DNA of 64,000 bases from assembly GCA_035629155.1 (NCBI GenBank), contig DASPIO010000028.1:23762-87761 (forward strand), written 5' to 3'. The position numbers were made by a program, and so were the translations under genes. The notes under the pieces are model-generated. The model saw nothing but the letters and a program-made list of their open reading frames with translations. It was not told the DNA's origin and did not search any database. Source of the DNA: Azospirillum sp. Lineage in GTDB: Bacteria > Pseudomonadota > Alphaproteobacteria > Azospirillales > Azospirillaceae. Of this stretch, positions 330-39,612 are shown piece after piece. The first letter of the stretch is position 1; each line of letters starts with the position of its first letter.

Positions 330-725
330 TCACGTCTTCGGGCGGCGGCGCTCGTACTCCGCCTCCCACACCGCCAGCGCCGCCTCTTCCATCGCTTGCA
401 GGCTGGTCACCGTCTCCGCGTCCCAGGGAACCCCGTGGGCGTCGGCGAGCTGGCGGACCTGGAGGAGATCGAGGCCGAGCGGAACGCCCCCCATCGGCGG
501 CTTGCGCCACATGCGCCGGGCGGCGTCGAACAGGGCGAAGATCGGCCAGACGGCGGCGTGCACGACGAAGACGGGCGGCTCCGGCTCATCCTCCGGGTCG
601 GCGGCTGGCGGGTCCTGTCCTGTCAGGGCCGCCAGCTCGTCGGCGTCGGGCTTGGCCGAGAAGCGGCGGCGCGCGGTGGAGGCGTCACCGCCGGCCCACC
701 GCCGCGCCGCCGCTACGAGTTTCCC
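330..725 (-). CDS. Tail assembly chaperone GT extension (-1 frameshift product; DUF1799-like)
   Basis: The -1 frame from the slippery site reads GKLVAAARRW...WPIFALFDAARRMWRKPPMGGVPLGLDLLQV...LQAMEEAAL, the typical 'GLD' motif of T-domain chaperones. It has no good start of its own. Confidence 0.8.
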   Translation of the reverse strand, partial: GKLVAAARRWAGGDASTARRRFSAKPDADELAALTGQDPPAADPEDEPEPPVFVVHAAVWPIFALFDAARRMWRKPPMGGVPLGLDLLQVRQLADAHGVPWDAETVTSLQAMEEAALAVWEAEYERRRPKT

Positions 726-1207
726 GTCTTGCCACCGTTGACCAGCTTCCAGAACGCCTGCTCCAGACCGACGCCGATGGGGCGGAAATCGGCCATGGCC
801 TCCACCAGGTCGGACGAGAACTCCGGCAGATCCTGGAAGATGCTGCCCCAGTTGTGGTTGTCCGGCAGGCCGACGACGACGCGGCGCAGCAGCGAGAGCC
901 GCCAGCCCTTGTAATCGGCCTCCGCTTGCTCGGCCTCGCGCTTCGCCTCGGCCTTGGCCTCGTCGTCGGTGGCGTCGCGGACCTTCTTGGCGGCCGTGTT
1001 GATGCGGTCGATGTACTCCTGCAGCTCCTTCTGGAGGTCGTCCAGTTCGCTGTCCGGGACCAGCTCGAAGGTGACGAAGCAGGTCTTGGTGGTATGGCGG
1101 CCGGTGGTCGTGCGGCCGGGCTTGGCGGACTCCGGCCACTTGATCTCGACCGGCCAGTCGAAAGTGAGGCGGTCGCCCTGGACGAACTGAAGTTGCGGCT
1201 TGCTCAT
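713..1207 (-). CDS. Tail assembly chaperone G
   Basis: MSKPQLQFVQGDRLTFDWPVEIKWP...; lies between tail tube and tape measure and ends at a slippery site. Confidence 0.85.
   Translation of the reverse strand: MSKPQLQFVQGDRLTFDWPVEIKWPESAKPGRTTTGRHTTKTCFVTFELVPDSELDDLQKELQEYIDRINTAAKKVRDATDDEAKAEAKREAEQAEADYKGWRLSLLRRVVVGLPDNHNWGSIFQDLPEFSSDLVEAMADFRPIGVGLEQAFWKLVNGGKTGNS
719..725 (-). other. Programmed -1 ribosomal frameshift slippery heptamer G GGA AAC
   Basis: Minus strand reads ACG GGA AAC TCG TAG. The X XXY YYZ heptamer lies one codon before the G stop, and the -1 frame is open to 330, as in lambda G/GT. Confidence 0.85.
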
Positions 1208-15701: not shown

Positions 15702-16076
15702 TCAGTCGAACAGGCTGGGTGCCTTGGGGTCGACGGCGCGGACCTCAGCATTGACCTTGCGGACGTGCCGCTCGGTGCAGCCGAGTTCCATGGCAATCTG
15801 ACGCGTTGTGCCAGTGGCGCGCAAGATGTGTTGCTTCAGGGCTTTGGTGGACTTGGCGTTCGGCACGTCCACCTGTTCGCCAGGGTAGATGGCGGCGAGC
15901 ACCTGCGCCGCCTCAAGCCCGATCAATTCCACCAGCGGCTGGCCGAGGCGCGGGTTGGCCGGAACCTTCCGCTTTGTGCCGCCCCACGCCTGCACGAGCT
16001 TCCACGCCGCGTCGACGTGGCCGGCGCGGGCGAGGTCGCCCAGGATGCCGGGCAAGTGGACGCGCTCCTCCGTCAT
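15702..16076 (-). CDS. Mor/C-family late transcription activator (helper)
   Basis: LIGLEAAQVLAAIYPGEQVDVP plus C-terminal HTH (TRQIAMELGCTERHVRKV); lies between gemA and lysis as in Mu. Confidence 0.88.
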   Translation of the reverse strand: MTEERVHLPGILGDLARAGHVDAAWKLVQAWGGTKRKVPANPRLGQPLVELIGLEAAQVLAAIYPGEQVDVPNAKSTKALKQHILRATGTTRQIAMELGCTERHVRKVNAEVRAVDPKAPSLFD

Positions 16077-16549
16077 CCTTTGGCCTCGGCCTTCTGGGCG
16101 CGGGCGTGCATGGCCTTCAGCGCCTCGATCACCTTGGCCGCCTGGGCGATCGGCAGGCGGCCCATCTGCTGACCGGTCACCTTCGCGATGAAGGCGTCCA
16201 TGGCCGGAACGCCCCGGCTCTTGACGGTACCGGCCTGGTGCAGGTCGATCCACAGCGCGCGGATCTTCCCGAGCTGCGGCGTATCGGCGTAGCGCGACGT
16301 CGGCCGGCCGGCGGCCTTGCCCTTCGGTTGGCCGGCGCCGAGGGCGCGGAAGCCGTCGAGCAGCGCCCGGCGCTCCGCCGTGGTCAGTTCGGCGGAGCTG
16401 TCCGTCCGCCCGTTCGAAGCCTGAAGGACGCGCGCCCGGTAGCAATCATCGGCGAGCGCCAGTTCCTTCTTCATGGCGTGGATGGCCGCCAGCTCCCTCT
16501 TGCGCTGCTGGTCACGATCCGCGCCGGATGGTTTGACGGGAGTTCGCAT
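16073..16549 (-). CDS. gemA: GemA / Mu gp16 (DUF1018)
   Basis: LAAIHAMKKELAL.DD.YR...GR.DSSAELT, QLGKIRALW motifs. Confidence 0.92.
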   Translation of the reverse strand: MRTPVKPSGADRDQQRKRELAAIHAMKKELALADDCYRARVLQASNGRTDSSAELTTAERRALLDGFRALGAGQPKGKAAGRPTSRYADTPQLGKIRALWIDLHQAGTVKSRGVPAMDAFIAKVTGQQMGRLPIAQAAKVIEALKAMHARAQKAEAKG

Positions 16550-24879: not shown

Positions 24880-27054
24880 TCATTCGACGGGACGGGCGAA
24901 GCGGGCCTTGCGCTCCTGGTCGCGGCGGCGGGCCTGGTACCAGGCCGACGTGCGGTTCGACGCCAGCCAGTCCAGATCGTCCTCCGACACCTCCTCGCCG
25001 GCCTCGATGCGCGCCTCGATCGCCTGGGCGCGGCGCCACCAGCGGTCCTCCGGCTTCTCGGCGGCCTGGGCCGGGGCGGCGAGGCGGCGGGCGACGTCGG
25101 CCTGCCGGACCGTGTCCGCCTCGGTGCGCGGCGCCGCGACGGCGGGCTTCGACGCGGTGATCGCGCGCTGGGCGGCCTCCAGGCCGGCGGAGGGCGGCGG
25201 CAGGGACGAGCGCGGCAGCGCGGAAACCGTGGCCGCGGGCCTGCCGATCAGCGCGTCGGCGAGCTGGTGCGGCTTGAACCCCTTGCCGGCGGCGCGGATG
25301 GCCGCCTTCTGATCGGCGATCAACTGCTGTTGCAGCGCCTTGGCCTGGGCCGACAGCTCGGCCCGCGACAGGCCGGCGCGTTCCGGGTTCTGGGCGATGC
25401 AGAGGAATTGGAACGGATCGGGGCGGTACACGAAGACCCGGTCCATCCGCTCCGGATCCAGTCGGACCTCCAGGCGGTCGCCGGTGCCGACGTAGGGGAT
25501 CAGCTCCGGCGCCCAGAAGTCGGCGTTCTCGACCCGGATTCCCTTTTTGCCCACGGTGCGGGTGCCGTCGCCGTCCGCGCAGGGCATCAGCAGCAGGTCG
25601 AGTTGGCGTTCGTCGACGACGCGCCACTCGGATCCTGCGTGCTCCTCCGCCACGGCGGCCGGGGTGCGGTCGCCCAGGCCGGCGTGCGGGCTGGTGTGAT
25701 AGCGGTTCTCGACCCACGCATCGGCCAGCATCTGCAGCTCGGCCGCCGGCAAGGCCGCCTCGAACACCTCTTCGTCCTTCTGGCCCAGGCGGGCGGCGAA
25801 GGTCTGGCGCGAGCGGATCTCCTGACGCTTGGCCACGTTGTGGCCGGTGTAGCCGGGCAGCAGCGGCATCAGCCCGTGCTGAACCGTGCCGATCGCGCGC
25901 TCGACGTGCGGCTTCTGCTCGGGCGAGTACGGTGTGCAGACGGGGTGCCGTATGGCGTCGCCAACCAGCGCGAAGAAGCGTTGCGTCTCGCGGGCCAGGA
26001 AGTCGGAGCCGTTGTCCGTCTTGATCGCCTCGGGCATGCCCCAGGCGAGGATGGCCCGGCGGATCAGCAGCAGCACGGCCGAGGCGCGCGGCACCTTGGT
26101 GACCAGGATCAGCATGCGGCGCGTGAAGACGTCGACCACGACGTAAATCGTGTGCCGCCCATCGGTCAGCATCAGGTCGGTCGGGCTGGCGTCGATCTCC
26201 CACAGCTCGTTGGGCTTGGTGATCGCCTCCGAATAGGAGCCGACGGCAACGAGGCTGCGGTTCTTCCAGGCGTCGGGGTTGGTCAGCCGCAAGTGGAGCT
26301 GCTTGTACTCCTCGCGCCATTGGTTGAGGCGGCGGCGGATCCAGCCGGCGGTGGGCATCTTCGCCTGACCGCCGCGCAGCAGCTCGAACCCCTCGCCGAA
26401 GCGCTTGACCAGGGCCGCCCGGTAGGCGTCGGCGTTCCAGTCGGGCTTGGCCAGCGCCACGGCGACCAGATAGCCCATGATGTCCTCGCGCGCCTGATCC
26501 AGCGACCCGGCACCCTTGCGGTTGCCGTAGGCGCCGGCCAGCCGGGCGGCCTCGCCGGACTCCACGGCCTCGACCCAGCGGCGAAGGGACGATGGGGACA
26601 CCGTGGGCTTGGCGGCACGGGCCCAATCCGGCACGTCCACCTCGCGGGCGTTGTAGAAGCCGGTGAACTTGTGCACCAGCCGGTCGCGGGACAGGCCGCC
26701 GGCCTGCCGCTCGAAGGCGAGGAAGGCGTTGGCGATGGTGGCCTTGGCGTCCAGCCGGGCCTTGCCGGCCTTGGTCAGCACCACCGGGGCGGCGGCGGTG
26801 CCTTTCAGCGTGGCCGCGAGCTTGGGCGGCGCCGGCGGGGTGGCCTGCTCGGCGGCGCGGCGGCCCAGTTCGATGCGGGCTTCCGGCGGAAGGGCTGTGA
26901 CGTGGTACTCGGTGCCGCCGCCGCGGCCCTGGCGGGGGCGAGCGGGCGACCAGCGTTCCTGCTGGGCCCGCATGTTGATGCCGCGCTTGGTGGACGGCAG
27001 GCCGGGGAGCGCGAAAAAGGCCAGTTCAGAAGCCGTGTACCAGCTTTCATCCAT
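24880..27054 (-). CDS. MuA-type DDE transposase
   Basis: N-terminal Mu DNA-binding domain (WYTASELA..ALPGLPST.RG), DDE motifs WEIDAS / KTDNGSDF / KPHVER, Mu C-terminal domain. Confidence 0.97.
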   Translation of the reverse strand: MDESWYTASELAFFALPGLPSTKRGINMRAQQERWSPARPRQGRGGGTEYHVTALPPEARIELGRRAAEQATPPAPPKLAATLKGTAAAPVVLTKAGKARLDAKATIANAFLAFERQAGGLSRDRLVHKFTGFYNAREVDVPDWARAAKPTVSPSSLRRWVEAVESGEAARLAGAYGNRKGAGSLDQAREDIMGYLVAVALAKPDWNADAYRAALVKRFGEGFELLRGGQAKMPTAGWIRRRLNQWREEYKQLHLRLTNPDAWKNRSLVAVGSYSEAITKPNELWEIDASPTDLMLTDGRHTIYVVVDVFTRRMLILVTKVPRASAVLLLIRRAILAWGMPEAIKTDNGSDFLARETQRFFALVGDAIRHPVCTPYSPEQKPHVERAIGTVQHGLMPLLPGYTGHNVAKRQEIRSRQTFAARLGQKDEEVFEAALPAAELQMLADAWVENRYHTSPHAGLGDRTPAAVAEEHAGSEWRVVDERQLDLLLMPCADGDGTRTVGKKGIRVENADFWAPELIPYVGTGDRLEVRLDPERMDRVFVYRPDPFQFLCIAQNPERAGLSRAELSAQAKALQQQLIADQKAAIRAAGKGFKPHQLADALIGRPAATVSALPRSSLPPPSAGLEAAQRAITASKPAVAAPRTEADTVRQADVARRLAAPAQAAEKPEDRWWRRAQAIEARIEAGEEVSEDDLDWLASNRTSAWYQARRRDQERKARFARPVE

Positions 27055-29277: not shown

Positions 29278-29514
29278 ATGAAGCCGGAAGACCGTCCGAC
29301 ATCCATGGTTTCTTTTCCGCTAACAATAGTTGGCGTGCTATTTCTTGCCGGAGGCGGGATGATGCTAACCGGCACTCCGCCGAACTTCATCGGCTCGATC
29401 GGCGCGGTGGGGATCGGGCTAGCCCTGATCGGCTTGGCCGGCATCAACACGCGCTTGGCCGAGGTGATCCACGAGTTGCGCCTCATCCGCGCCGCCGCAG
29501 AGAGGGTGCCATGA
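29278..29514 (+). CDS. Small two-TM membrane protein (left-end moron)
   Basis: Two hydrophobic segments; coupled to the next gene. Confidence 0.6.
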   Translation: MKPEDRPTSMVSFPLTIVGVLFLAGGGMMLTGTPPNFIGSIGAVGIGLALIGLAGINTRLAEVIHELRLIRAAAERVP

Positions 29515-30035
29515 AAGCCGGTCACCTCGCCCTGTCTGCTTTCTTCCTTCTCGGATCAGCCGGGCCTTGCGCGGCCGATTGGCAGTTCACCCGATGGGGA
29601 ATGACGGTCGAGGAAGCTGTTCGTGCAGCTGGGGCCGCAGGGGTGAATGTGGATGCGGGCGGCACTGTGCCTTCCGGCGACGGCAAGCTTACGAAGCTCC
29701 CCATTCCATACTACAAGGTGGGCAGTATATTTTTTGATATATCTCTGGTGTTCGAGTCGCCGGATAATAGGCTTGTCATGGTGCTGATGACGGTGAGTCA
29801 GCGCGGCGATTTTGACAGGCAGAAGCTCGACGCCCTGCGTATGGATTTGCTTCAGGCGTTCGGCTCTCCTTTTGCTGTGAATCAGCAAGACGGGTTTGAC
29901 CTCGCGATGTGGCGCGACGTGACCCGCAACAACCGGATATTCGCGAAAATCCGCGTCGATCCGCCGGGCAGAACGGGCGGCCTGCGCGACACCTCCATCA
30001 TGTACACGCCGCTCGTTCCCGTCAGCGCCTTCTGA
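29511..30035 (+). CDS. Exported protein (left-end moron)
   Basis: Signal-peptide-like N-terminus followed by WQFTRWGMTVEE. Confidence 0.7.
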   Translation: MKAGHLALSAFFLLGSAGPCAADWQFTRWGMTVEEAVRAAGAAGVNVDAGGTVPSGDGKLTKLPIPYYKVGSIFFDISLVFESPDNRLVMVLMTVSQRGDFDRQKLDALRMDLLQAFGSPFAVNQQDGFDLAMWRDVTRNNRIFAKIRVDPPGRTGGLRDTSIMYTPLVPVSAF

Positions 30036-30044
30036 CCGGCCACC

Positions 30045-30217
30045 GTCAAACCATCCGTCCGTCAGCGTACAATGCGGCGATGTCCGTATGGTTTGACAGA
30101 ACGGAGTGGACGCGTCTCGAAAACCTAGGCATCACAACGCCTGCACGTCCCACTCGATCCCCCAAAATCCCACCGTATCCCGGCCCCCTATCCCGTCAAA
30201 CCATTGGTCTCTCTACA
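30045..30217 (-). repeat. Helper left end (attL): three transposase-binding motifs (30045-30054, 30088-30097, 30195-30204) and terminal CA
   Basis: GTCAAACCAT / ATGGTTTGAC / GTCAAACCAT; read inward, the end is TGTAGAGAGACCAATGGTTTGAC. Confidence 0.9.
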
Positions 30218-30955
30218 CCGGTGCGTCGATCGCCTCGGGCGTCAGGCGGAAGGTGCCGAAATGCATGGCTACGCTGGTGCGGGCACCCAGGTCCTCGTGC
30301 GCCGCCACCGCCTCCTCCGGGTTCATGTGCTGCGGCGCCATGAACCAGCGCGGCTCGTAGGCGCCGATGGGCAGCAGCGCCACGTCGATGCGCGGGAAGC
30401 GGGCGCCGATCTCCTTGAAATGCGGGCCGTAGCCGGTGTCGCCCGCGAAGTACAGCGTGCCGGCATCCGTCTCCACCACGAAGCCGCCCCACAGCGTCGT
30501 GTTGCGCCGGAAGGGCGCGCGCGCCGACCAGTGCTGCGCCGGCACGAAGGTGACGCGGCAGCCGGCCGGTCCCCGCGTGCTCTGCCACCAGTCCAGTTCC
30601 TCGACGTGCGCGAAGCCGTCGCCGTTCAGCAGCGGCCCGTTGCCCAGCCCCACCACCGCCCGCGGCCCGAAGCGCCGGGCCAGCGCCGCCAGCGACGGCC
30701 GGTCCAGGTGGTCGAAGTGCCCGTGGCTGACCAGCACGAGGTTCGGGTCCGGCAGCCGTTCCAGCGGCACGCCCGGCGGGCGGGCCCGCTTCGGCCCCAG
30801 CCGGCCGAACGGACCGGCCCGTTCGGAGAACACCGGGTCGGTGAGCAGGCGAAGGCCCGCCGCCTGCACCAGGAAGGTGGCGTGGCCGACATGGGTGACC
30901 GCCAGCGCGCCCGGTGCCGGGGGTGCCGGGACCGGCTGCGGCGGGTCCTCGACGC
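30218..30955 (-). pseudogene. Middle fragment of a host MBL-fold metallo-hydrolase (NAPE-PLD/RomA-like), cut by both elements
   Basis: VTHVGHATFLVQ, LLTDPVFSERA, SHGHFDHLD, FAGDTGY, LPIGAYEP, MHFGTF motifs. The reading frame is broken at 30217 (helper end) and at 30956 (satellite end). Confidence 0.95.
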
Positions 30956-31000
30956 TGTAGCGCGCCGAATGGTTTGAATTGGCGCGCTGGATGGTTTGAC
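30956..31000 (+). repeat. Satellite right-type end: terminal TG and two tandem ATGGTTTGA sites (30969, 30991) 22 bp apart
   Basis: Read directly from the sequence; the 22-bp period matches Mu R1/R2 spacing. Confidence 0.88.
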
Positions 31001-31053
31001 AGCGCTGACACCCCGTTTCAGGCTTACCGGGAATTGAAGAAGCCTTGGCGCTT

Positions 31054-31467
31054 CTAGGCTAGCGCCGGCAGTGTCGCATCGTCGCCCAGGTGCGCAATTT
31101 GAACATTCCTTCCCGGCGGCTTCCCCCCTGGAGGCTCGATGATAACAACGCCGTCTTTCGTATGATAATGGATAATCAGGACTGTGCGCGCACATCTGGC
31201 GGGATTGGAAAGACGGGACAGGGCTTGCCGATTGTACTTTTTCAAAAAGCGAAAGCATTCACGCATATAGATCCTGTATTCTTCCTGAATATCTTTGCGG
31301 AGCTGTTCCAATGCCGTTGGGCATGGCGGGTTGCCGCACAGATCGCTTTCCCACTTGGCAAATACATTATTCAAACGCGATGAAAGGTCGGCCGCCACTT
31401 CCCCTGACAGCAGGCGCGCGGTTACCTTCTGTGGGCGCTCCCCTGTGCCGTCATACGCGTGCTGCAT
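31054..31467 (-). CDS. Satellite cargo, hypothetical protein (137 aa)
   Basis: AGGAG upstream of TTG ATG; lower GC. The ORF track labels it '+', but the listed translation (MQHAYDG...) reads on the minus strand. Confidence 0.6.
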   Translation of the reverse strand: MQHAYDGTGERPQKVTARLLSGEVAADLSSRLNNVFAKWESDLCGNPPCPTALEQLRKDIQEEYRIYMRECFRFLKKYNRQALSRLSNPARCARTVLIIHYHTKDGVVIIEPPGGKPPGRNVQIAHLGDDATLPALA

Positions 31468-31518
31468 CAACGTCCACTCCTGATTGGTTCGTTATGCCCT
31501 CCCGCTCGACAAGAGGGC

Positions 31519-31546
31519 CGCTCGGCCGGATCTGGCCGGCCGAGCG
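31519..31546. repeat. Perfect 11-bp inverted repeat just downstream of the satellite chaperone stop
   Basis: CGCTCGGCCGG-ATCTGG-CCGGCCGAGCG; no U-tract, so a terminator role is uncertain. Confidence 0.6.
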
Positions 31547-31554
31547 CGCCGGAA

Positions 31555-32079
31555 TCACTTCGGCTGCTCGCCGTTGACGAGCTGCCAATAGGCGTCCTCC
31601 ATCGCCTTGCCGATCACGCGATAGCCGGCCATGGCTTCCACGAGGTCGGGCGAGAAGTCCGGCAGCGTCGAGAAGAAGGCATTCCAGCCGTGGTTGTCGG
31701 GCAGCCCCACCACCACCTTCCGCAGCAGCTCCGTGCGAAAGCCCTTGTGCTGGCTTTCCAGCTTCTCGACTTTGGCGTTGAGTTCCTTCAGATCCTTTTT
31801 CGCCTTGGCGGCGTTGCCGTCCGACGCTTCCAGGGCGAGTTTCGCGGCCTCCTGCTTGGCCTCCGCGATCTCGCTGACGCGCTGGCCCAGCTCGGCGATG
31901 AGCTGATCGTGCTCGCTGTCCGGCAGCAGCATGAACGACAGATAACAGGTCTTTTTGACCTGTTTCCCACCCACCCAGCCGCCGCTGGCACGCTTGGCCG
32001 TTTCCGGCCAGTTGAACATGACCGGCCACACAAACGTCATTTCGGTGGGGGCTGCAAGAGTAATCTTAACCTGTTCCAT
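31555..32079 (-). CDS. Satellite tail assembly chaperone G (paralogue of 713-1207), no frameshift site
   Basis: Shared motifs TF.WPV...WPE.AK, KTC...F.L.PDSE.D.L, LLR.VVVGLPDNH.W, LP.FS.DLVEAMA, W.LVNG. Ends GAG CAG CCG AAG TGA. Confidence 0.9.
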   Translation of the reverse strand: MEQVKITLAAPTEMTFVWPVMFNWPETAKRASGGWVGGKQVKKTCYLSFMLLPDSEHDQLIAELGQRVSEIAEAKQEAAKLALEASDGNAAKAKKDLKELNAKVEKLESQHKGFRTELLRKVVVGLPDNHGWNAFFSTLPDFSPDLVEAMAGYRVIGKAMEDAYWQLVNGEQPK

Positions 32080-32102
32080 TTCCGCTCTCACTCGTTCTTT
32101 AG

Positions 32103-32540
32103 TTAATCCATCAACGAATTGAAGTATTCTGCAATGTCTCTCCATTCGCCTGTCAAAGACTGCTTTGCTGATGCGATCAGGTCATTGATGTACACCTCAA
32201 CTTCGAACCTGACATTCTTTCTTTTGTTTTGGTACAGCGCGCTCAGTCGGCGCCTCTGCCAGCGCTTTGTTAACATGGACCCGAGAAGGCGTTCGGTGTC
32301 GTCAATGTGCGCCACCAGTATTCTCTCAATGCTTGCTCGCAGATCGGAAAACAGAGGATGTCTGGCATCAAAATGTTCTGATGATCCAACCAGTTCAGAA
32401 AACGCATTGCGATTGCTGATATCCCAGCGTTCCAGCACGCTGCGGATTGCGTCAGCTCCGTTTGTCGGCATAGCGGGGCGCATTATCCGAAACTCGACGC
32501 TGTTGCGGTTCTGGATCGGTATTCGGCCGCGTGCGGGCAC
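32103..32540 (-). CDS. Satellite cargo, hypothetical protein (start uncertain)
   Basis: AT-richer ORF between the Ntn-like gene and the chaperone; no recognised family. Confidence 0.55.
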   Translation of the reverse strand: MPARGRIPIQNRNSVEFRIMRPAMPTNGADAIRSVLERWDISNRNAFSELVGSSEHFDARHPLFSDLRASIERILVAHIDDTERLLGSMLTKRWQRRRLSALYQNKRKNVRFEVEVYINDLIASAKQSLTGEWRDIAEYFNSLMD

Positions 32541-33145
32541 CCAAAGCGGTCGTAATACTCGCTATAATCAGGGTAAAATCCTGCTATTTTTTGATCGGCG
32601 CCATGCTCATTTACTTCGGTAAGATGCATGACGCCACCAATGCACATTGGTTGACTAAATTTCTCCTGTACCTTGTGCTGCCCAAGCGCCATCTTTACCA
32701 TCATGGCCTCATCGGCATGCGCGGGAAGGCGCACACCCGGCGCCATTCTGGGCGCAAGATGAATGCCCGGCTCCATCGTGGTCGCCTGGACAGGCACACC
32801 ACCGGCGCGAAGCTTGTACCTCGTGCTCTGCGGCGCCTGCTTGTTGGCGGACCAGCACATCAACGTGATTTCACCACCGGACGCTTCGAAGAATTCATCA
32901 CCGATACGCTCGGGGACGCCGCGAATAACGATATCCACATGCTCTATGCTTTCGACGCGCGCCAGTACAGGCCCAAGGACTTGAAGAAGCGCATGTGTTC
33001 CGCGCATGGAGAATGCAAATCGGCCGCTCTCAGAGACGAAACACTTTCGTTCGCAAAGGCCAACCGGCATGTTGCCCCGGTATATCATCGTGTCCGTCAG
33101 GCACAAAATGCGGTCGCTTCCCACGAATACGTTGCTGACGCTCAT
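32483..33145 (-). CDS. Proteasome-beta/HslV-like Ntn-hydrolase-fold protein
   Basis: After Met removal: Ser1, Asp17, Lys33, Gly48 and C-terminal IGGVMHLTEVNEHG, matching beta-subunit catalytic spacing. ATGA overlap with the TMP stop. Confidence 0.65.
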   Translation of the reverse strand: MSVSNVFVGSDRILCLTDTMIYRGNMPVGLCERKCFVSESGRFAFSMRGTHALLQVLGPVLARVESIEHVDIVIRGVPERIGDEFFEASGGEITLMCWSANKQAPQSTRYKLRAGGVPVQATTMEPGIHLAPRMAPGVRLPAHADEAMMVKMALGQHKVQEKFSQPMCIGGVMHLTEVNEHGADQKIAGFYPDYSEYYDRFGCPHAAEYRSRTATASSFG

Positions 33146-34530
33146 TTAATTGCCTCTTCGAACGCGGAGACGACTTCGGGGCAGGTCAAGAATTCGTCCG
33201 AGAACTCACACTCGGCCATAACCTTCTCAAGCTCGTTGGACAGATCCTTCAGATTGTCCGTCTGGGTCACGACACCGCCACTGCCGTTGGCGGGCGGGGC
33301 GTTGTCCTGCTTCGTCAGGTCGTTGAGTTCGCGTTGCAGCTCGATCCGGCGCTTGACCAGCGCCTCATGCATGGCGGGAACGCCGCTCGTTTTCTCGGGA
33401 AGGCGCCCGTACTCCCGGTCTATCCGCTCGATCTCCGCCCGCAACAGCGACGCCCTGTCCGACTCGATGCCGGCGCGAAGCGCCTTGGCCGCGTCACTGA
33501 CCTTGCCCGCAACCAGCTTGGCAATGTCGCTCCGGGCGAGGCGGTCAACGTAGGCGTCCCAGGCCACGCCAGCGTCATGCAGCGCGGCGCCCCACTCGCT
33601 GCGCATGGTCTGGGCCGCGCCACCGTACCGCTGGCGCAACGCCTCGATGGCGACGTTCAGCGCGCCGGCCTTGTTGCCGTGGTCAGCCAGCATGCGCACC
33701 TGGCGCTCTTGCTCGACCGACAGGAAGTTCAATTCCGCATCGAGTCGCTTGACGCCCTCGCCCCCCTTGCCGAGAGCGTCCCCCATCTTGGCGGCGGCGG
33801 CCGGGATCGTGTAGCCCAGCACCGCCGCAACATCCGGCGCGAGTTCCAGGATGCTGCGGAACAGCTCCGGGTCACGGAGGTCGGGGTTGCGCACCAGCTC
33901 CAAGGTGGACTGGTATGCTTCGCTGCGGGACGCCCCTGCATGGATCGCGACGTTCGCCATGTCGCGGAGCTGGCCGGCCGTGATGCCGGCCTCATTGCCC
34001 ATCGCCTTCAGGATGGACGCGAGTTCCCGCCCCTCGGCACCGATGCTCGCCATGCGCGCGGCGACGATGCCGATCGGCGCGGCGATCACGGCGGCGGCGG
34101 CGCCGATGCCCAGGATGCGGCCCGTGATGCCGGGGAACGCTTGGAGCAACTGCCCGCCCTGTTGCATCAGGACGGTGAACGGGCTGGCGCCGGACGACAG
34201 CGATGCCGCAACGTCGCTGGCCGTGTAGCTCAGCGCCTGGATCTGCTGCGTGCTGAACCTCGTCTTGGTCGCCAAGTTGTCGTTGGCGCTGGCCGCACCG
34301 CCGAACGCCGCACCGGCCCTGTCGGCGGCGCCGGCCGCAGCGCCCAGCGATTGCTTCGCCTCGTCCGCCAGTGTGTCCAGGCGGCCAAGCGCCTGTGAAA
34401 GTTGCTGGCCAGCTTCCCGGCCAGTATCACCAAGCTTGGACACCTCGCCCGTTGCCTTGCGAAGCTCCACTACGAAGTCTTCGGCTTCCGCAGTCAGCTT
34501 GAGGACGACGTGTTCTGCAACCTTGGTCAT
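33142..34530 (-). CDS. Satellite short tape measure protein (462 aa)
   Basis: QQIQALSYTASDVAASLSSGASPFTVLMQQGGQLLQAF lambda-family TMP motif; N-terminus similar to the helper TMP start at 304. Confidence 0.88.
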   Translation of the reverse strand: MTKVAEHVVLKLTAEAEDFVVELRKATGEVSKLGDTGREAGQQLSQALGRLDTLADEAKQSLGAAAGAADRAGAAFGGAASANDNLATKTRFSTQQIQALSYTASDVAASLSSGASPFTVLMQQGGQLLQAFPGITGRILGIGAAAAVIAAPIGIVAARMASIGAEGRELASILKAMGNEAGITAGQLRDMANVAIHAGASRSEAYQSTLELVRNPDLRDPELFRSILELAPDVAAVLGYTIPAAAAKMGDALGKGGEGVKRLDAELNFLSVEQERQVRMLADHGNKAGALNVAIEALRQRYGGAAQTMRSEWGAALHDAGVAWDAYVDRLARSDIAKLVAGKVSDAAKALRAGIESDRASLLRAEIERIDREYGRLPEKTSGVPAMHEALVKRRIELQRELNDLTKQDNAPPANGSGGVVTQTDNLKDLSNELEKVMAECEFSDEFLTCPEVVSAFEEAIK

Positions 34531-34647
34531 GACGATACTCGCTCGCGATTGGGCCGGCGCTGGACTGCTAGACCAGCCCAGCGCCGGCCGCACTCCGATG
34601 CGGTAAGGAGAGCCGGCCCCCGCACCGGATGCCGCTGGGATGCCCGG

Positions 34648-35568
34648 TTACAGGTACGGGGACACCACCAGTTCGGCGGTGCCGGCCCACTCGTTGGGCG
34701 CCGCGACCGTCTGTTCGTTCGGCGCCGTGCCCACCGTGACCAGCTTCATGTTGTTCTTGATGAGACGCAGCCCGTCGCCTTCCAACTCGTCCGGCACCAC
34801 GAGGATGTTGGGGGTAAGGCCCAGCTTCTTGCCGTTCTCGCCCCGGATGCTCTTGATCGCCACGCGGGCCGCCTCGTAGTTGTCGTGCGTCAGCGGCGCC
34901 TTGCTCGCATAGGCGAGCTGCCAGAGCCCGAAGCCGGCGTTGGCGCGCGCGCGGACGCCGTAGAAATACTCGTCTTTCCAGAAGACGTTGTCGTCCGTGG
35001 CGGCGTCCTGCCTCTGGAACTCGTACGGCAGCCGCTCCTGAAACACGAGGGGTTTGACCGGCTGGCCGGCGTCCATCAGGAACCACGCCGGCCCGGCCCC
35101 ATCCTGATAGTTGCTGTAGGACGTAGGCTGACAGTCGATATCCACGACATGATCAGTGGAGAAGAACGGCTTGCCGTCGTAGCACAGCTCGGTAAACCCG
35201 GCTGCCAGAAGCTCGTACACCAACTGGTCGGGGTGCTTCGCCGCGTCGGCGCCCATCTTCTCGTACAGCGGGCCGAAGACGCCGTACTGGTCATCTTCGA
35301 TGGCCGTACGGGGAACGCCAATGGTCACCTCAAACGTGCGGTTCTTGATGGTGTAGCCCGCGACTTCAAGGTTATGGATGATACGCGAGCCGATCCATTC
35401 CCGAAGCTGCGGAAGTTCCTTCAACCAACCATAAGCTTCTTCGCCCGTCGCGCTGTTTGTCTTCATGGCGATTTTCAGGTACGTGCTTTCGACGCCCTTG
35501 AAGCCCTTGTTGAAGGAGGTCTTGAACCCGGCGAACATGCCGGCGAGGTTGGGGGCGGTGATGAGCAT
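34648..35568 (-). CDS. Satellite Mu-like major capsid protein gpT (306 aa)
   Basis: MLITA...F.GF.TSF, REWIG.R..HNLE, CYDG..FF.TDH, GFG.WQLA..SKA.LT..NYEAAR; divergent paralogue of 4750-5643. Confidence 0.95.
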   Translation of the reverse strand: MLITAPNLAGMFAGFKTSFNKGFKGVESTYLKIAMKTNSATGEEAYGWLKELPQLREWIGSRIIHNLEVAGYTIKNRTFEVTIGVPRTAIEDDQYGVFGPLYEKMGADAAKHPDQLVYELLAAGFTELCYDGKPFFSTDHVVDIDCQPTSYSNYQDGAGPAWFLMDAGQPVKPLVFQERLPYEFQRQDAATDDNVFWKDEYFYGVRARANAGFGLWQLAYASKAPLTHDNYEAARVAIKSIRGENGKKLGLTPNILVVPDELEGDGLRLIKNNMKLVTVGTAPNEQTVAAPNEWAGTAELVVSPYL

Positions 35569-35577
35569 GGCTGTCCC

Positions 35578-36543
35578 TTACAGGTTCTTGGCGTATTCGG
35601 CCGGATCGTGTCCGAGGGCCGCGCAGATGGCCTTCTGTTCGGCGGTAAGGCGCCCATCGGCGCCCGAGTTCGGATCGGGCGGCCGGCCCCCCGGCACCAC
35701 CTCACGGGCGAGGTTGCCGAACACGGGCGGAGCGCTGGCGGCGAACTGGTCGAAGCTGGCCGGGTTGGATCGGCAGAGGACGAGCCCCCACTCCCGCTGG
35801 GCCGGTGTCATCTTGCCGGCGCGGATCGCGGCGTCGACCTTGGCCGTCGCCTGCTCCTCCGAAAGGTTGGTGCGCATGCTGGCGAGCTGCGTCGCGGCTT
35901 CATCATAGAGATGGCGCGGCACGTAGAGGGACGGGTCGGGCACGGCGGCGGCCGTCGCCTTCTCGCTGGCGTCCTTGACCAGCTTCGTGACGGCCTCGAT
36001 CACGGCCGCTTCGTCGCTGGTGTCGGGCAGGTTCAACAGCGCGCACAAGCGCTTGATGGTTTCGGGCGACATGGGCGCTCCCATACTGGCAAGGGCCTTG
36101 AGTTCGAAGGCCGGGTTGTTGACCAGGGCGGCCCGAAGAATGCAGGTGACCGCGCCTTCCTTGGTGTGCCGGAAGACGGGGGACACGTAGCGGTACTCCC
36201 TGGCCGCGATCTTGGCAGCGGCGCGCTGCGTCCACTCCACGCGGCCCCAGATGCCATCAGGGCGGGCCTCAAAGGCCGCGATCCAGCCTGCGGCGGGCGC
36301 CTGTCCACCGTGCGGGGCGGCGAGGTCAACGGCGTGGTCGTAGTCGATCACCGGCTTGACCGGACCGGCCATCGTCAGGGACGCGGCGATCACCTGTTGC
36401 GCGGCGGCCATGCCGGGAAGGGACCAGGGGCCGCGACCGTCGCGGCCCTTGATGGTGCCGTAGGGCAGAAGCTGCACCCAATCCGGCGGTGCGGCGGGGA
36501 GTTCGGAAGAGAAGGAGGCGAGAGCGATCAGGGGATCAGTCAT
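35578..36543 (-). CDS. Satellite prohead protease/scaffold gpI; internal scaffold start at 36072
   Basis: DWVQLLPYG, PVIDYDHA, GIWGRVEWT, EYRYVSPVF, ALVNNPA. GGGAG precedes the internal ATG (MSPETIKRLCALLNL). Confidence 0.93.
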   Translation of the reverse strand: MTDPLIALASFSSELPAAPPDWVQLLPYGTIKGRDGRGPWSLPGMAAAQQVIAASLTMAGPVKPVIDYDHAVDLAAPHGGQAPAAGWIAAFEARPDGIWGRVEWTQRAAAKIAAREYRYVSPVFRHTKEGAVTCILRAALVNNPAFELKALASMGAPMSPETIKRLCALLNLPDTSDEAAVIEAVTKLVKDASEKATAAAVPDPSLYVPRHLYDEAATQLASMRTNLSEEQATAKVDAAIRAGKMTPAQREWGLVLCRSNPASFDQFAASAPPVFGNLAREVVPGGRPPDPNSGADGRLTAEQKAICAALGHDPAEYAKNL

Positions 36544-36910
36544 TGCTAATATCCCCATAGATCTCGCGGCGCACTTTCCTTACGTGGCGTTCAGTACATC
36601 CCACGGCCTGTGCGACGACACGCGTTTTCGCGCCTTCCATCGCCAATATCAGTTCCTTCTTGGAACCAGCCGGCGGCGGCAACACCGGGATGTCAATCTG
36701 TTCTCCAGGATACATATTTCCTATTATTTTGGCGTGCTCCAGTCCGACAATCTTTGCGATCTTGGATCGTTCCGAAGGGCTCGCGGCAAATTTCCTCTTA
36801 GTGCCGCCCCAAGAAAGGCCAAGTTTTATTGCCGTTTCGTATGATGTCGCCCGCGCAATACCCGCCAAGAAGGGAGGAAGCCTCTTGATCCTGTCATCAG
36901 TGATCGCCAT
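36536..36910 (-). CDS. Satellite Mor/C-family activator (paralogue of 15702-16076)
   Basis: WGGTKRK, YPGEQIDIP and GCTERHVRKV shared with the helper activator. Start placed at ATG 36910 by alignment; the track's GTG at 36952 overlaps the predicted -10 box. Confidence 0.88.
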   Translation of the reverse strand: MAITDDRIKRLPPFLAGIARATSYETAIKLGLSWGGTKRKFAASPSERSKIAKIVGLEHAKIIGNMYPGEQIDIPVLPPPAGSKKELILAMEGAKTRVVAQAVGCTERHVRKVRREIYGDISND

Positions 36911-36948
36911 AGCCTTGACGTAGCCCCCCGGCATCGGAATTGGTTCCG

Positions 36949-36995
36949 ACACTAGGGGGACGGAGAAGCGTCTATCGACGCGGAACTAGTTCCCC
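36949..36995 (-). promoter_or_regulatory. Satellite late promoter: dyad GCGGAAC-TA-GTTCCCC (36980-36995) plus -10 TAGTGT (36949-36954)
   Basis: Same dyad and 25-nt spacing as the helper late promoters. Confidence 0.7.
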
Positions 36996-37067
36996 TTTGT
37001 CGGGGGAGCTGAGAGATATCCAGCTTTGATGAAGAGGAGCGGCCGATACGCCCGGCCGATTGCCGCC

Positions 37068-37092
37068 CGTTTGAACGGGGCTTTGAACGCCT
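37068..37092. repeat. Tandem TTTGAACG repeat shared with helper 7369-7393
   Basis: CGTTTGAACGGGGCTTTGAACGCCT vs CGTTTGAACGGGGTTTTGAACGCCT, 24/25 identical. Confidence 0.85.
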
Positions 37093-37251
37093 CTGGGGCG
37101 TAGGGCGCACCCACGCTACCGGAAAACGCCAGAACGCACCAGCGGGCTTCCTGTGGGCTTCCAGGGCGGGGCACCCGGCAGCCACCTCCAATGCGAAACG
37201 CCCCGCCGGTAGACCCGGCGGGGCGTTGGTGTCGGCAGCGCGGCGAGGCGT

Positions 37252-37584
37252 CTACGCCTCGCGGGCGTGCCCGCCAGCGCCAACCGCGCGCTCCATGATC
37301 GTATCGACCTTCTCCGTGACTAGCTCCAGCATGGCGATCCACTGGCCCCGCTCGGTGGTGCCCATGATCATCGCTTCAATGGCGCGCAGTCCGGCCTTCA
37401 CCTGCATCAGGTCGTCGCCCAGGCTGTGTTCTGCCTCGCCAGCGACGTAGCCGGCCATGCCCCTCCTACGCGCCTTCCCCATGATGGACGTGAGTTCTTC
37501 GATCACCGCTTCTCTGACCGCGCTCCCCCGCTCCGCGCTGTTCTTGAGGAAGATCACGTTGTTTCCGGTGTTGTCGTGGGCCAT
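37252..37584 (-). CDS. Satellite early hypothetical protein (110 aa)
   Basis: AGGAGG upstream of ATG; helical ORF downstream of the Bro-like gene. Confidence 0.6.
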   Translation of the reverse strand: MAHDNTGNNVIFLKNSAERGSAVREAVIEELTSIMGKARRRGMAGYVAGEAEHSLGDDLMQVKAGLRAIEAMIMGTTERGQWIAMLELVTEKVDTIMERAVGAGGHAREA

Positions 37585-37691
37585 ATTCGAAGAGCCTCCT
37601 ATGGGTTCGCCCGGTGGCACGGTGGCGGGGCACGGTTTTCCAGGCCAAGCGCCCCGCCACCACCCGTCGCGGGCGGTGGGGTGGTAGGGAA

Positions 37692-38216
37692 TCACGATCC
37701 GGCGATGTCGAGGATGCGACGCGCCTTCTCGATGGTGACCGTCAGTTCCATGCGCACGAGGTTGGTTGTGGGGATGCCAGCCCCCGCCTCGCCCATGTCC
37801 AGGCCCGGCGGGATCGGCGGGGCCTCACCCTCCGGCCCGAAGGTCGTGTAGAGCCACCGCAGCACCCCAACGGCGTGGGCGGAGCGACTACGGGCCACCA
37901 TCACCTTCGCGGCAGGGATGGAAAGAAGGCGGGTTGCGGCGCCTCTCCCGTCGTCGATCTGGCGCAGTAGGACGGCGCCCGGCTCTCGCAGTTCCGGGAA
38001 GGTTGACGCGGCATGGTCCACCGACTGCCTTGCCCAACTGGCGCCGGCCGCCCGCATCAGGTCGTTGCCGAGGACGTAGGTTGTGCCGTCCACCGAGAAG
38101 ACGCGGACGGGGGCCGCACCACAGTAGAGGGTGCAGACAGGCGGCAGGCGGGCGTTGTCGGCTGGCACCTCGGGCCGTCCTTCGGCGGGGGCCGCTGGTG
38201 TGCGGGGATCGTCCAT
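37692..38216 (-). CDS. Bro-N / antirepressor-like protein
   Basis: VRVFSVDGTTYVLGNDLMRAAG...LLSIPAAKVMVARSRS.HAVGVLRWL pattern. Confidence 0.7.
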   Translation of the reverse strand: MDDPRTPAAPAEGRPEVPADNARLPPVCTLYCGAAPVRVFSVDGTTYVLGNDLMRAAGASWARQSVDHAASTFPELREPGAVLLRQIDDGRGAATRLLSIPAAKVMVARSRSAHAVGVLRWLYTTFGPEGEAPPIPPGLDMGEAGAGIPTTNLVRMELTVTIEKARRILDIAGS

Positions 38217-38244
38217 CTACTGCTCCAAACTGCGGTTGCGTTGG

Positions 38245-38315
38245 CCCCATGCATGGGGTAATTTGCCCCAGATTGGGCGCCGTTGCAATGGCAAAATGCG
38301 CCAACGTTGGGGTAA
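38245..38315. promoter_or_regulatory. Three operator-like dyads between divergent regulators
   Basis: CCCCATGCATGGGG (38245-38258, perfect), CCCCAGATTGGGCG (38266-38279), CGCCAACGTTGGGG (38299-38312). Confidence 0.65.
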
Positions 38316-38323
38316 ATCGCACC

Positions 38324-38560
38324 ATGATTACGGGTGACCAAATCCGGGCCGGCCGGGAACTGCTCAACTGGTCTGCCCGCGTCTTGTCTGAGCGGGCAGG
38401 CGTGGGGCCGAACACGGTGCAGCGCATGGAAAGCGCCGGAGCGGCGGTGCCATCAGGTCTTGCCGCCAACCTGGACAAGGTGCAGAAGGCATTAGAGGCG
38501 GGTGGGATTGAGTTCCGGGACGGCGGGTGGGTGCGTAGGTCACCGCAGAACGGCGCGTAA
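38324..38560 (+). CDS. XRE-family HTH regulator (satellite repressor candidate)
   Basis: MITGDQIRAGRELLNWSARVLSERAGVGPNTVQRME...LEAGGIEF, a common alphaproteobacterial XRE pattern. Confidence 0.88.
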   Translation: MITGDQIRAGRELLNWSARVLSERAGVGPNTVQRMESAGAAVPSGLAANLDKVQKALEAGGIEFRDGGWVRRSPQNGA

Positions 38561-38645
38561 GACGTGCTACCGATCACCAATGCGAGGGTGTCAACGCCAA
38601 AGTGATGCACCTTAACCACCGGCATCACTGTGGTAAGGTGCGCAC

Positions 38646-38843
38646 ATGGCTGTGAACCCGGATACCACCGTACGCAAGGTCGTCTCGCTTCCCAAAGAGT
38701 TGTGGGAAGAGGTGAGCGACTATCGCTTTGATAACAGATTGGGCACGGAAGCGGACGCGCTTCGGCGTCTGATCCAACTTGGATTGGATGCCGCCAAGGC
38801 CAGTCCCCGCGATCCTGGCCGCGCACCGTCGCGGAAGCGCTAG
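38646..38843 (+). CDS. Ribbon-helix-helix (CopG/Arc-like) protein
   Basis: RKVVSLPKELWEEVSDYRF...TEADALRRLIQLGL. Confidence 0.8.
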   Translation: MAVNPDTTVRKVVSLPKELWEEVSDYRFDNRLGTEADALRRLIQLGLDAAKASPRDPGRAPSRKR

Positions 38844-39291
38844 TCGCTCCCCAAAGCAAGCGAGGCGGGACCGCGCCAGCGGCCCCGCCTCGTAGTGTCT
38901 GGCACCCATGCGGAGGGTTGGGAGACTGGCGTCAACGGACGCCACGCCCCACCACGTTGCCACACCAGCGCCCGCCCGATGCCTCGGAACGAGTTCCGCT
39001 TGGTGGGAGCCGGCGGCAGGCTCCATCTACAACCGGCGCGCGATCCCGAGACGGCGGGCCGGAACCGGAACCCCTTCCCACTTCCGGACGGATCTTTCAT
39101 CGCGCGATGGTTGTGACGGAAACGCAAGCCACTGCAATAACAAGCTTTTTTGAACTGTAGCCTTCCCAGTTTGACTGGAAACGCTAGCTTCCACTTCCGT
39201 CCCACTTCCGTAGCCGAACCGGGACCCGGCCTACGCGCCACATCCCTTGCAAATCTTGGCTTTAGCTGCGTTTTAGTGCCGCCTCCGTTCA

Positions 39292-39462
39292 GTCAATCCA
39301 TACGTCTCCCGGACACTTTCGCGCGTTGCGCCGCATGGTTTGGCGGAAAATTCCGGTTGTGCCCCTAACCCTATGATCCAATGCGCCGTTCATCCCATCT
39401 GATCCCCGAAAATCCCACGGTATCCCGGCCCCCTATCCTGTCAAACCATTGGTCTCTCCACA
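39292..39462 (-). repeat. Satellite left-type end: three transposase-type sites (39292, 39335, 39440) and terminal CA
   Basis: GTCAATCCAT / ATGGTTTGGC / GTCAAACCAT in the same orientations as the helper, spacings 43 and 105 bp vs 43 and 107 bp. Last 62 bp are 58/62 identical to 30156-30217. Confidence 0.92.
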
Positions 39463-39612
39463 GACGCGCTCCGGCCAAGGCGCCCAGCCGCGGTGCGACC
39501 AGAAACGCAGCAGGTCGCCCGGGCCCTTGTCGGTCGACTGGAAATGCGGCGGGTTGAAGAACCGCCGTCCGTCGCAATGGTCGGAAACCGGGAAGCGCGC
39601 GATGCGGGCCAT
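39463..39612 (-). pseudogene. N-terminal fragment of the interrupted MBL-fold hydrolase
   Basis: MARIARFPVSDHCDGRRFFNP...DLLRFW...WPERV, the usual N-terminus of this family; joins in frame to 30950. Confidence 0.92.

Follow-up and report, generated by a model that had tools for sequence, protein, structure and literature searches.

The window analysed here, a 64,000-nt stretch of the Azospirillum sp. contig DASPIO010000028.1, holds a Mu-like siphovirus prophage on the minus strand (positions 1 to 30217) and, close to it, an 8,507-bp element at 30956–39462, also on the minus strand, that we interpret as a phage satellite. Both carry a gene related to the tail-assembly chaperone (TAC) G of tailed phages. 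G coats the tape-measure protein (TMP), and the major tail protein is brought in by the T part of the longer product GT. GT is made from G by a -1 frameshift, which ranks among the most conserved recoding events in tailed phages. When the slippery site of phage TP901-1 is destroyed, heads form and tails do not (PMC4493119); G is thus insufficient by itself. Fusing G permanently to T in the same phage gives non-infectious particles (PMC4493119), which indicates that a balanced G:GT ratio is required for functional virions. An earlier note on this DNA, made from its letters alone, had claimed that the satellite G has lost the frameshift site and the T extension. It suggested that the element supplies only G, either to coat its own TMP or to skew the G:GT ratio, and relies on the GT of the adjacent prophage, its presumed helper.

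The helper G gene (713–1207, minus strand, 164 aa) was assigned from conserved gene order, lying between a 427-aa tube candidate and the TMP gene. It ends in …AAG ACG GGA AAC TCG TAG at 713–730 on the minus strand, just as the earlier note had quoted it, and a heptamer scan of the gene found exactly one in-frame X_XXY_YYZ site, the -1 slippery heptamer G_GGA_AAC (GGGAAAC) at 719–725 on the minus strand. The -1 frame was also correctly described as open: it runs for 126 codons beyond the G stop, to 330, and the T extension that yields GT (330–724, minus strand) matched our T profile hidden Markov model (HMM) with an E value of 7.4e-65. The TMP gene starts near 303, just past the end of T. Neither Pfam nor PHROGs offered a TAC family for the helper G or the satellite G, and a G profile search of PDB sequences returned coiled-coil noise only. 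The assignment as G/GT was therefore made on the classical features, since no Pfam, PHROGs, PDB-sequence or significant Foldseek match was available; the helper-type family displays these features very clearly.

The satellite gene (31555–32079, minus strand) is a 174-aa, G-only paralogue of this chaperone, read from MEQVK to YWQLVNGEQPK*, and both its placement and its 3' end, …GAG CAG CCG AAG TGA, are exactly as first reported. The paralogy itself is supported by 44% identity to helper G across 171 aa (E 4e-48), with the similarity peaking in the final ~ 60 residues. We found zero in-frame X_XXY_YYZ heptamers along the whole gene, and its -1 frame offers 33 unrelated codons beyond the stop before it closes. 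A tblastn search of the element with five T peptides found no T-like sequence (best E 0.045), the T profile HMM found no match among six-frame open reading frames (ORFs) in any satellite in any frame, and hhalign detected no similarity between the T profile and three other proteins of the element, s145, s220, and s138. Gene order in the element is TMP–s220–s145–G with no tube gene, so the satellite G does not sit between tube and TMP genes. That a single gene of this kind lacks a heptamer is the chance expectation; the non-random part of the observation is the contrast between phage and satellite loci, which is 9/9 against 0/4.

This contrast was established across a small gene family, with 17 cluster representatives of G among 1.84 billion proteins. 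The nine distinct phage loci are L001/2, L003/4, L005, L006/7, L010, the IMG/VR phages L017–L019, and the helper; the four distinct satellite G loci are the window copy (together with L020, a 94%-nt variant of it), L008/L009, L013/L014, and L021. In L001/2, L003/4, L005, L006/7, and L010, the G homologue lies between a tube candidate of 425–434 aa and a TMP of 1,747–2,218 aa. All nine phage loci have a terminal in-frame heptamer (GGGAAAC, GGGAAAG, or AAAAAAC) located 10–13 nt from the end of the stop codon. Their -1 extensions span 124–133 codons and match the T profile HMM at E values from 1e-49 to 1e-66, with the T of L005 cut by the contig end. Conservation of T begins right after the slip site, which favours frameshifting over separate initiation. 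By comparison, a heptamer was found in none of the four satellite loci, and a T extension in none of them either. The satellite proteins end in VNGEQPK*, VNGETQK*, LNGPDKA*, and MLDPK*, where the phage counterparts end in …NGGK(A/T)GN* or …K(R/K)GN*. The loss is thus not peculiar to the window: L008/9, L013/14, L021, and L020 are all without T, and no downstream T-like ORF or alternative slippery site was found, which leaves the claim of the earlier note standing. Among the satellites, the canonical G–TMP order, with G immediately upstream of the TMP gene, occurs in L021 alone; its G stop and the start of the TMP gene are 50 nt apart, too close to accommodate T. In L013, we noted the sequence GGC GGG AAG immediately past the G stop, which is possibly a relic of a slippery site.

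The satellite genes fall into two deep clades in a G tree, a simple neighbour-joining tree with long branches from which the L021 gene was left out. The window, L020, and L008 copies cluster beside the sequence P0010, next to helper-type phage genes, and P0010 is also the nearest relative of L021 G by pairwise identity (58%). The L013 gene shares 53% identity with its counterpart in phage L018 and 49% with that in phage L019, and only ~ 25% with the other satellite genes. With two separate satellite clades, T was probably lost at least twice, and independently, as far as such a tree can tell. Searches with s220 and the satellite TMP against genome, viral, and metagenome contigs recovered no further satellites, and the G alignment had no matches among metagenome contigs. 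Given that these wider scans were empty, the satellite G family appears small within reach, at four distinct loci.

The satellite G is under purifying selection. Between the window gene and its variant L020, dN/dS, the ratio of nonsynonymous to synonymous substitution rates (ω), is 0.12, with dS of 0.10 and dN of 0.012, and the 3' ends of the two are identical. An AlphaFold (AF2) model of the protein, with a mean predicted local distance difference test score (pLDDT) of 85.7, shows a beta-hairpin and a long helical hairpin, with a small helical domain at the C-terminus. The 11-bp hairpin that the earlier note had seen after the gene is real: it is GC-rich, begins 9 nt past the G stop (31519–31546, minus strand; stems 31519–31529 and 31536–31546), and folds at -49.7 kcal/mol with a z score of -3.95. 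A second hairpin follows it, at ~ 31495–31518. We considered the 11-bp hairpin as a canonical intrinsic terminator and rejected this, as it has no U-tract and was absent from the terminator scan. Contigs from RNA libraries run across it, from 31135 to 31639.

The surrounding element is a natural, non-autonomous, mini-Mu-like transposon, defined by its ends, its target-site duplication, and its gene content. It has Mu-type ends (TGTAG…CCACA) and runs from TGTAGCGCGCCGAATGGTTTGA at 30956 to …CCATTGGTCTCTCCACA at 39462, with TGTAGCGCGCCGAATGGTTTGA… and …TCAAACCATTGGTCTCTCCACA as end sequences. The terminal inverted repeats are of the 5'-TG…CA-3' type (TGTAGCGCG…/…CTCTCCACA), and ATGGTTTGA-type repeats occur at both ends. 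The attL-type, c-proximal end (39290–39462) was recognised from the repeat families D1 and D5 and a motif scan as a series of spaced ATGGTTTGA motif repeats, the putative transposase-binding sites. By the same motif scan, the attR-type end (30956–31005) has two adjacent ATGGTTTGA sites. A 70-nt direct repeat, 90% identical, links the helper attL (30148–30217) to the last 70 nt of the satellite (39393–39462), and a repeat search found a 17-mer that occurs four times and has an inverted copy at 30955–30977. The element is flanked by a perfect 5-bp duplication, GACGC, at 30951–30955 and 39463–39467. Removing the element together with one copy of the duplication restores a continuous ORF for a 295-aa hydrolase of the metallo-beta-lactamase (MBL) fold. 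Its GC content is 62.8%, compared to ~ 70% around it.

Sequencing runs offered further views of the insertion. A contig from run X4, from an organism of 90–95% similarity, joins 30950 to 39467 at the spacing expected of an empty site, and one from run X2 crosses from the right end at 39466 into a flank that differs. The depth of the satellite contig (30727–39726) in DNA run X1 was 469, compared to 141–162 for the helper and ~ 105–145 for the host; these are crude contig depths, which correspond to ~ 3 satellite equivalents per genome, and the assembler did not branch at the element ends. Such an excess would fit extra copies with many low-abundance junctions, as from transposition or packaging, or carriage in several strains.

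Searches with Pfam and PHROGs found no transposase, MuB, portal, terminase, connector, tube, or tail-tip genes among the ORFs of the element. Having no MuA or MuB ORF, the element is non-autonomous, and the missing replication, packaging, and virion genes are present in the adjacent prophage. The hallmark genes of phage-inducible chromosomal islands of the capsid-forming type (cf-PICIs), namely the integrase, portal, small terminase, and head-tail connectors, were also not found in the element, and no tRNA or integrase attachment site was found in the window. A non-autonomous mini-Mu-like element that brings its own morphogenesis genes is by that combination a satellite, and the label given to it in the earlier note was right. 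We regard it as a helper-dependent mobile element and the adjacent Mu-like siphovirus prophage as its presumed helper. The helper carries MuA (24880–27054), MuB, Mor, portal, MuF, the gpI protease, the gpT capsid protein, connectors, the tube candidate, G/GT, and TMP.

Only four satellite proteins have paralogues in the helper: G, the capsid protein, the protease, and Mor. The Mor/C-like late transcription activator (36536–36952, minus strand) matched phrog_836 at 2.2e-12 and is 40% identical to the helper ORF at 15741–16103. The head protease/scaffold of the Mu gpI family (35578–36558, minus strand; PF10123, 2.7e-71) is 41% identical to the helper copy, and the major capsid protein of the Mu gpT family (34648–35568, minus strand; PF10124, 4.9e-113) is 49–50% identical to the helper capsid protein. 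The tape-measure-like protein of 462 aa (33142–34530, minus strand) belongs to TMP_2 (PF06791, 3.8e-24; phrog_24, 3.5e-20). We examined it as a shortened version of the helper TMP and rejected this, as the two belong to different Pfam families (TMP_2 and TMP_3) and have no BLAST similarity.

The remaining genes are less easily named. A conserved, satellite-specific protein, s220 (32483–33145, minus strand), always follows the TMP gene and is 36–44% identical in an alignment of five elements. It had no match in Pfam, PHROGs, or the PDB, and a single-sequence structure model reached a pLDDT of 37; its invariant motifs read MSVxN…CLxDT…RG…CIGGxxH. The weakly conserved s145 (32103–32483, minus strand), which probably starts at the ATG at 32483, lies between s220 and G and is 21–26% identical in a five-element alignment of its own, with no Pfam, PHROGs, or PDB match. 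It was tried as a divergent TAC and rejected, given that hhalign shows no relation to G. Both s220 and s145 could be hub- or Dit-like proteins or chaperones of a new kind. Between G and the attR end lies s138, an ORF of 138 aa (31054–31470, minus strand) with a GC fraction of 0.55, absent from L008 and L021. It has no family match and is not T-like, and it may be accessory cargo (a moron or defence-type gene) at the element end. Two regulators (38324–38560 and 38646–38843, plus strand) lie at the attL-type end and, like Mu c, are read towards it: a helix-turn-helix (HTH) protein and a ribbon-helix-helix (RHH) protein, the latter matching the transcriptional repressor phrog_4738. Together they are likely the satellite's immunity or induction switch. 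Two further proteins, of 174 aa and 147 aa, are encoded between the regulators and the Mor-like gene in coding-strand order.

Related elements place these genes in a wider context. L008 has the gene order and the attR-type end (…GCGCTACA) of the window element, and the attR-type end of L021 is also …GCGCTACA. The L008 element interrupts the repressor gene of a different Mu-like prophage, ~ 1.2 kb from that prophage's attL. Searching with the satellite TMP, we found the capsid–TMP_2–s220–s145 cassette on other backbones, and the satellite TMPs were 36–60% identical among satellites. L011/12 (L011 3963–12033; L012 297–8991) is a ~ 9-kb element between host genes that encodes a CI-like repressor, a 695-aa MuA-like transposase (phrog_310), a MuB-like protein, GemA, a gpT capsid protein, a 449-aa TMP_2 protein, and an s220 homologue; no G, portal, or terminase was found in it. 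From this gene content, it is a predicted relative of the satellite with autonomous transposition. In L013/14 (L013 3144–13122), the cassette sits on a tyrosine-integrase element with a fused 635-aa capsid protein, and the T-less G, on the opposite strand, belongs to another G clade. Regulators of the Mu-repressor type occur in L015, which is truncated by the contig end, and in L016. Wherever the cassette occurs, with or without G, s220 and s145 follow the TMP gene. Judged by these gene orders, the cassette is the conserved unit and G a frequent, not universal, companion. Since the cassette is carried by non-autonomous and autonomous transposons as well as by an integrase element, it looks like a mobile "virion-remodelling" module.

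Several features of the neighbourhood were also observed. The left end of the helper and the satellite are 738 bp apart, in the same MBL-fold hydrolase gene and in the same orientation, with the c-proximal attL end of the helper (30043–30217, ending …GGTCTCTCTACA) in the 3' end of that gene. Mu-type target immunity normally disfavours insertion beside an existing Mu end. A preference for helper-proximal sites, or local hopping, may explain the close insertions in the window and in L008. A gene for a small membrane protein and a 174-aa lipoprotein-like gene lie between the helper repressor and attL (29278–30035, plus strand). The membrane protein is kept at the same place in the prophage flanking L008 (8517–8831), and the two genes may serve lysogenic conversion or exclusion. 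In phage L006 (3562–5895), found in the sample that also yielded L008, the tail module is the same (tube, G/GT, and a 2,218-aa TMP), and a head gene encodes a 777-aa Phage_capsid_4 fusion rather than Mu gpI/gpT. With the tail shared and the head different, head and tail modules appear to be exchanged independently in this group. Elsewhere in the window, depth in run X1 rises to 1,521 at ~ 41368 and 5,035 at ~ 47211, with many contig joints and variable inserts linking the two positions; these look like a highly repeated short host element.

The reading we prefer, to which we would give an even chance of being correct, is that TMP_2, s220, s145, and G form a partial tail module, in which the G-only protein acts as chaperone to the satellite TMP and T comes in trans from helper GT. 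The helper transposase would replicate and move the satellite, and helper machinery would package it into capsids built of the satellite capsid and scaffold proteins. The TMP–s220–s145–G module would be analogous to the tmp–tac–bhuB cluster with which the phage satellites called PLEs build chimeric tails. Satellite G would keep the satellite TMP soluble and extended, and a small amount of helper GT would provide tube recruitment, the T function, in trans; the C-terminal domain common to satellite G and helper G should permit the two to co-assemble. On this account, T could be shed because it would be available from helper GT, with the 390 nt that encode it dispensable in an 8.5-kb element and hence lost. 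The expected product is a helper-derived tail that would be about four times shorter, at ~ 70 nm for the 462-aa TMP compared to ~ 270 nm for a TMP of ~ 1,800 aa, estimated at 1.5 Å per residue. In L021, the position of G 50 nt upstream of the TMP gene favours a chaperone-client pair.

A number of observations weigh against this partial-module reading. No match at E <= 0.001 was obtained when the satellite G model was searched with Foldseek against the PDB and BFVD, and there was no TAC among the top matches; neither the PLE1 TAC 5IR0 nor HK97 2OB9 was returned. The G gene is not detectable by the G profile HMM in L011/12 or L016, and its position varies between elements. In L008/L009, it carries a 1-nt frameshift in its first third, shared by two runs. 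The RNA libraries X2 and X3 cover helper and satellite evenly at depths of 2–9, which DNA carry-over might explain, and they make no convincing case for expression. The TMPs present a further difficulty: satellite TMP_2 has no similarity to the helper-type 1,820-aa TMP_3, even though satellite G is close to helper G, and the satellite TMPs are orthologous while their Gs come from two phage clades, so that G tracks the helper rather than the satellite TMP. This mismatch fits G acting on helper components at least as well. A role for G as an adaptor that links satellite TMP to helper GT would fit it too.

If G does act on helper components, it could be a weapon, which we consider rather unlikely. 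As a dominant-negative competitor, the G-only protein would bind helper TMP or join helper G/GT assemblies, would be unable to recruit tube, and would skew the G:GT ratio. Helper tails would be suppressed, and tube and tip proteins freed for the satellite TMP. The derivation of satellite Gs from helper-type phage G lineages, which they track, favours such interference, as do the strong conservation of the final ~ 60 residues with helper G and the lack of relation between the satellite TMP and helper-type TMPs. The sensitivity of the ratio is documented by the non-infectious G-T fusion of TP901-1 (PMC4493119), and there are precedents acting through the TMP, as both Rta in PLE11 (PMC12987554) and Tab (PMC10884400) block helper tail assembly. 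Yet the satellite itself requires tails, and L021 G occupies the exact slot of a TMP's own chaperone. Moreover, G is missing or broken in some relatives, which argues that it is not a core weapon.

We give little credence to the module being self-sufficient, with a non-homologous satellite protein, s145 or s220, recruiting the tube so that neither an own T nor helper GT is needed. That s220 and s145 always follow the TMP gene, even without G, is consistent with such a role. Against it, hhalign links neither protein to T or G, and with no Pfam, PHROGs, or PDB match for either, the proposal draws on their position.

It also seems improbable that G is a dispensable relic, captured along with helper structural genes and now drifting, with loss of the frameshift site as neutral decay. 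The shared L008/L009 lesion would suit this. It falls at L008 7070–7214, between the N-terminal beta-hairpin part and the rest of the protein, and a 114-aa protein is called from an internal ATG; the gene could be a pseudogene, could use the internal start, or could carry an error common to both runs. The absence of G from L011/12 and L016 and its variable position within elements would likewise be expected of a relic. A drifting gene would not, however, be expected to show a dN/dS of 0.12 at dS 0.10 with identical 3' ends, an intact ORF in 3/4 lineages, and GC content at third codon positions (GC3) typical of coding sequence, and two independent lineages keep G yet precisely lose T.

Finally, all recognisable genes of the element have Mu-like phage relatives, as they would in a decayed second Mu-like prophage with G merely a damaged phage gene, but this is very improbable given that both ends are intact with a perfect 5-bp duplication, L008 repeats the compact gene set in its order, the cassette is found again on other backbones, the order TMP–s220–s145–G differs from that of phages, a relative has the empty site and another sample a different flank, and the depth is ~ 3x that of helper and host.

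Among known systems, the nearest to our preferred partial-module reading are the PLE satellites of the Vibrio cholerae phage ICP1 (tmp–tac–bhuB; Nature 2026, PMC12987554). They encode a TMP, a TAC, and a hub protein and direct chimeric, shorter tails that contain the satellite TMP and exclude the phage TMP (PMC12987554). The element in the window likewise encodes a TMP (the TMP_2 protein) and a TAC (the G paralogue), and its use of helper tube and tip would follow from its genes. In both systems, satellite and helper TMPs are of different lengths, and the satellite versions are distantly related to their helper counterparts. However, no sequence or fold relationship was found between the two systems. 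The helper here is a Mu-like siphovirus and the PLE helper a lytic myovirus, and the element here is a transposon without integrase that also has capsid and scaffold genes. The gap in TMP length is ~ four-fold, compared to 95 aa in PLE. Frameshifting of the PLE TAC is not discussed in PMC12987554.

With the gpG/gpGT proteins of lambda and TP901-1, the helper and phage homologues share the position between tube and TMP genes, the terminal slippery site, and a -1-frame T extension of ~ 125–133 aa. The satellite copy has neither of the two defining recoding features, and the G family here matches no Pfam or PHROGs TAC family, with a predicted fold that matches no solved TAC. Like cf-PICIs, the element has its own capsid genes and would take tails from its helper, and putative tmp genes occur in some cf-PICIs (PMC12987554, Extended Data Fig. 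10 legend); cf-PICIs differ in having an integrase, portal, small terminase, and head-tail connectors, none of which occur in this element with its Mu-type transposition. Laboratory mini-Mu constructs resemble it in their attL/attR-type ends with transposase-binding repeats, the 5-bp duplication, the lack of a transposase, and dependence on a Mu-like helper. The element here differs from them in being natural and conserved, with its own morphogenesis genes and regulators. The EPIP satellites of Mycolicibacterium (bioRxiv 2025, PMC12822802) also carry capsid, scaffold, and TMP genes, and their particles have smaller heads and altered tail length (PMC12822802). They are serine-integrase elements of actinobacteria with small terminase and connectors, and their tails are longer, whereas those here are predicted to be shorter. 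The word "chaperone" is absent from the EPIP paper (PMC12822802).

Satellite-encoded TMPs and TACs have been described only recently, in PLEs (2025–26) and EPIPs (2025). Our literature search found no report of a satellite of transposable phages or a natural counterpart of mini-Mu, and none of a satellite TAC that had lost the G/GT frameshift. Taken together with the census, the satellite-specific loss of a near-universal recoding signal is apparently convergent. A broader proposal is that these elements form an undescribed satellite class, in which natural mini-Mu-like elements and their integrase-borne cousins remodel the virion at both ends, with small capsids built of their own capsid and scaffold proteins and ~ 4x shorter tails set by their own TMP. 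The chaperone of that TMP would have lost the otherwise universal G/GT frameshift more than once and adaptively, since the rare GT could be obtained from the helper. We put this forward tentatively, as possible and on balance doubtful.

The element extends satellite biology to transposable, Mu-like phages and would provide a second, unrelated lineage beside the PLEs for satellites that re-engineer helper tails. The contrast between phage and satellite genes is a direct handle on the purpose of T and on whether it acts in trans, and a TAC without a slippery site may serve as a sequence signature for recognising satellite tail modules. If these elements do form such a class, the recoding signal for G:GT could be dispensed with wherever T is supplied in trans, and tail length would be a property tuned by the parasites of phages, for example to obtain more tails from a limited pool of tube protein.

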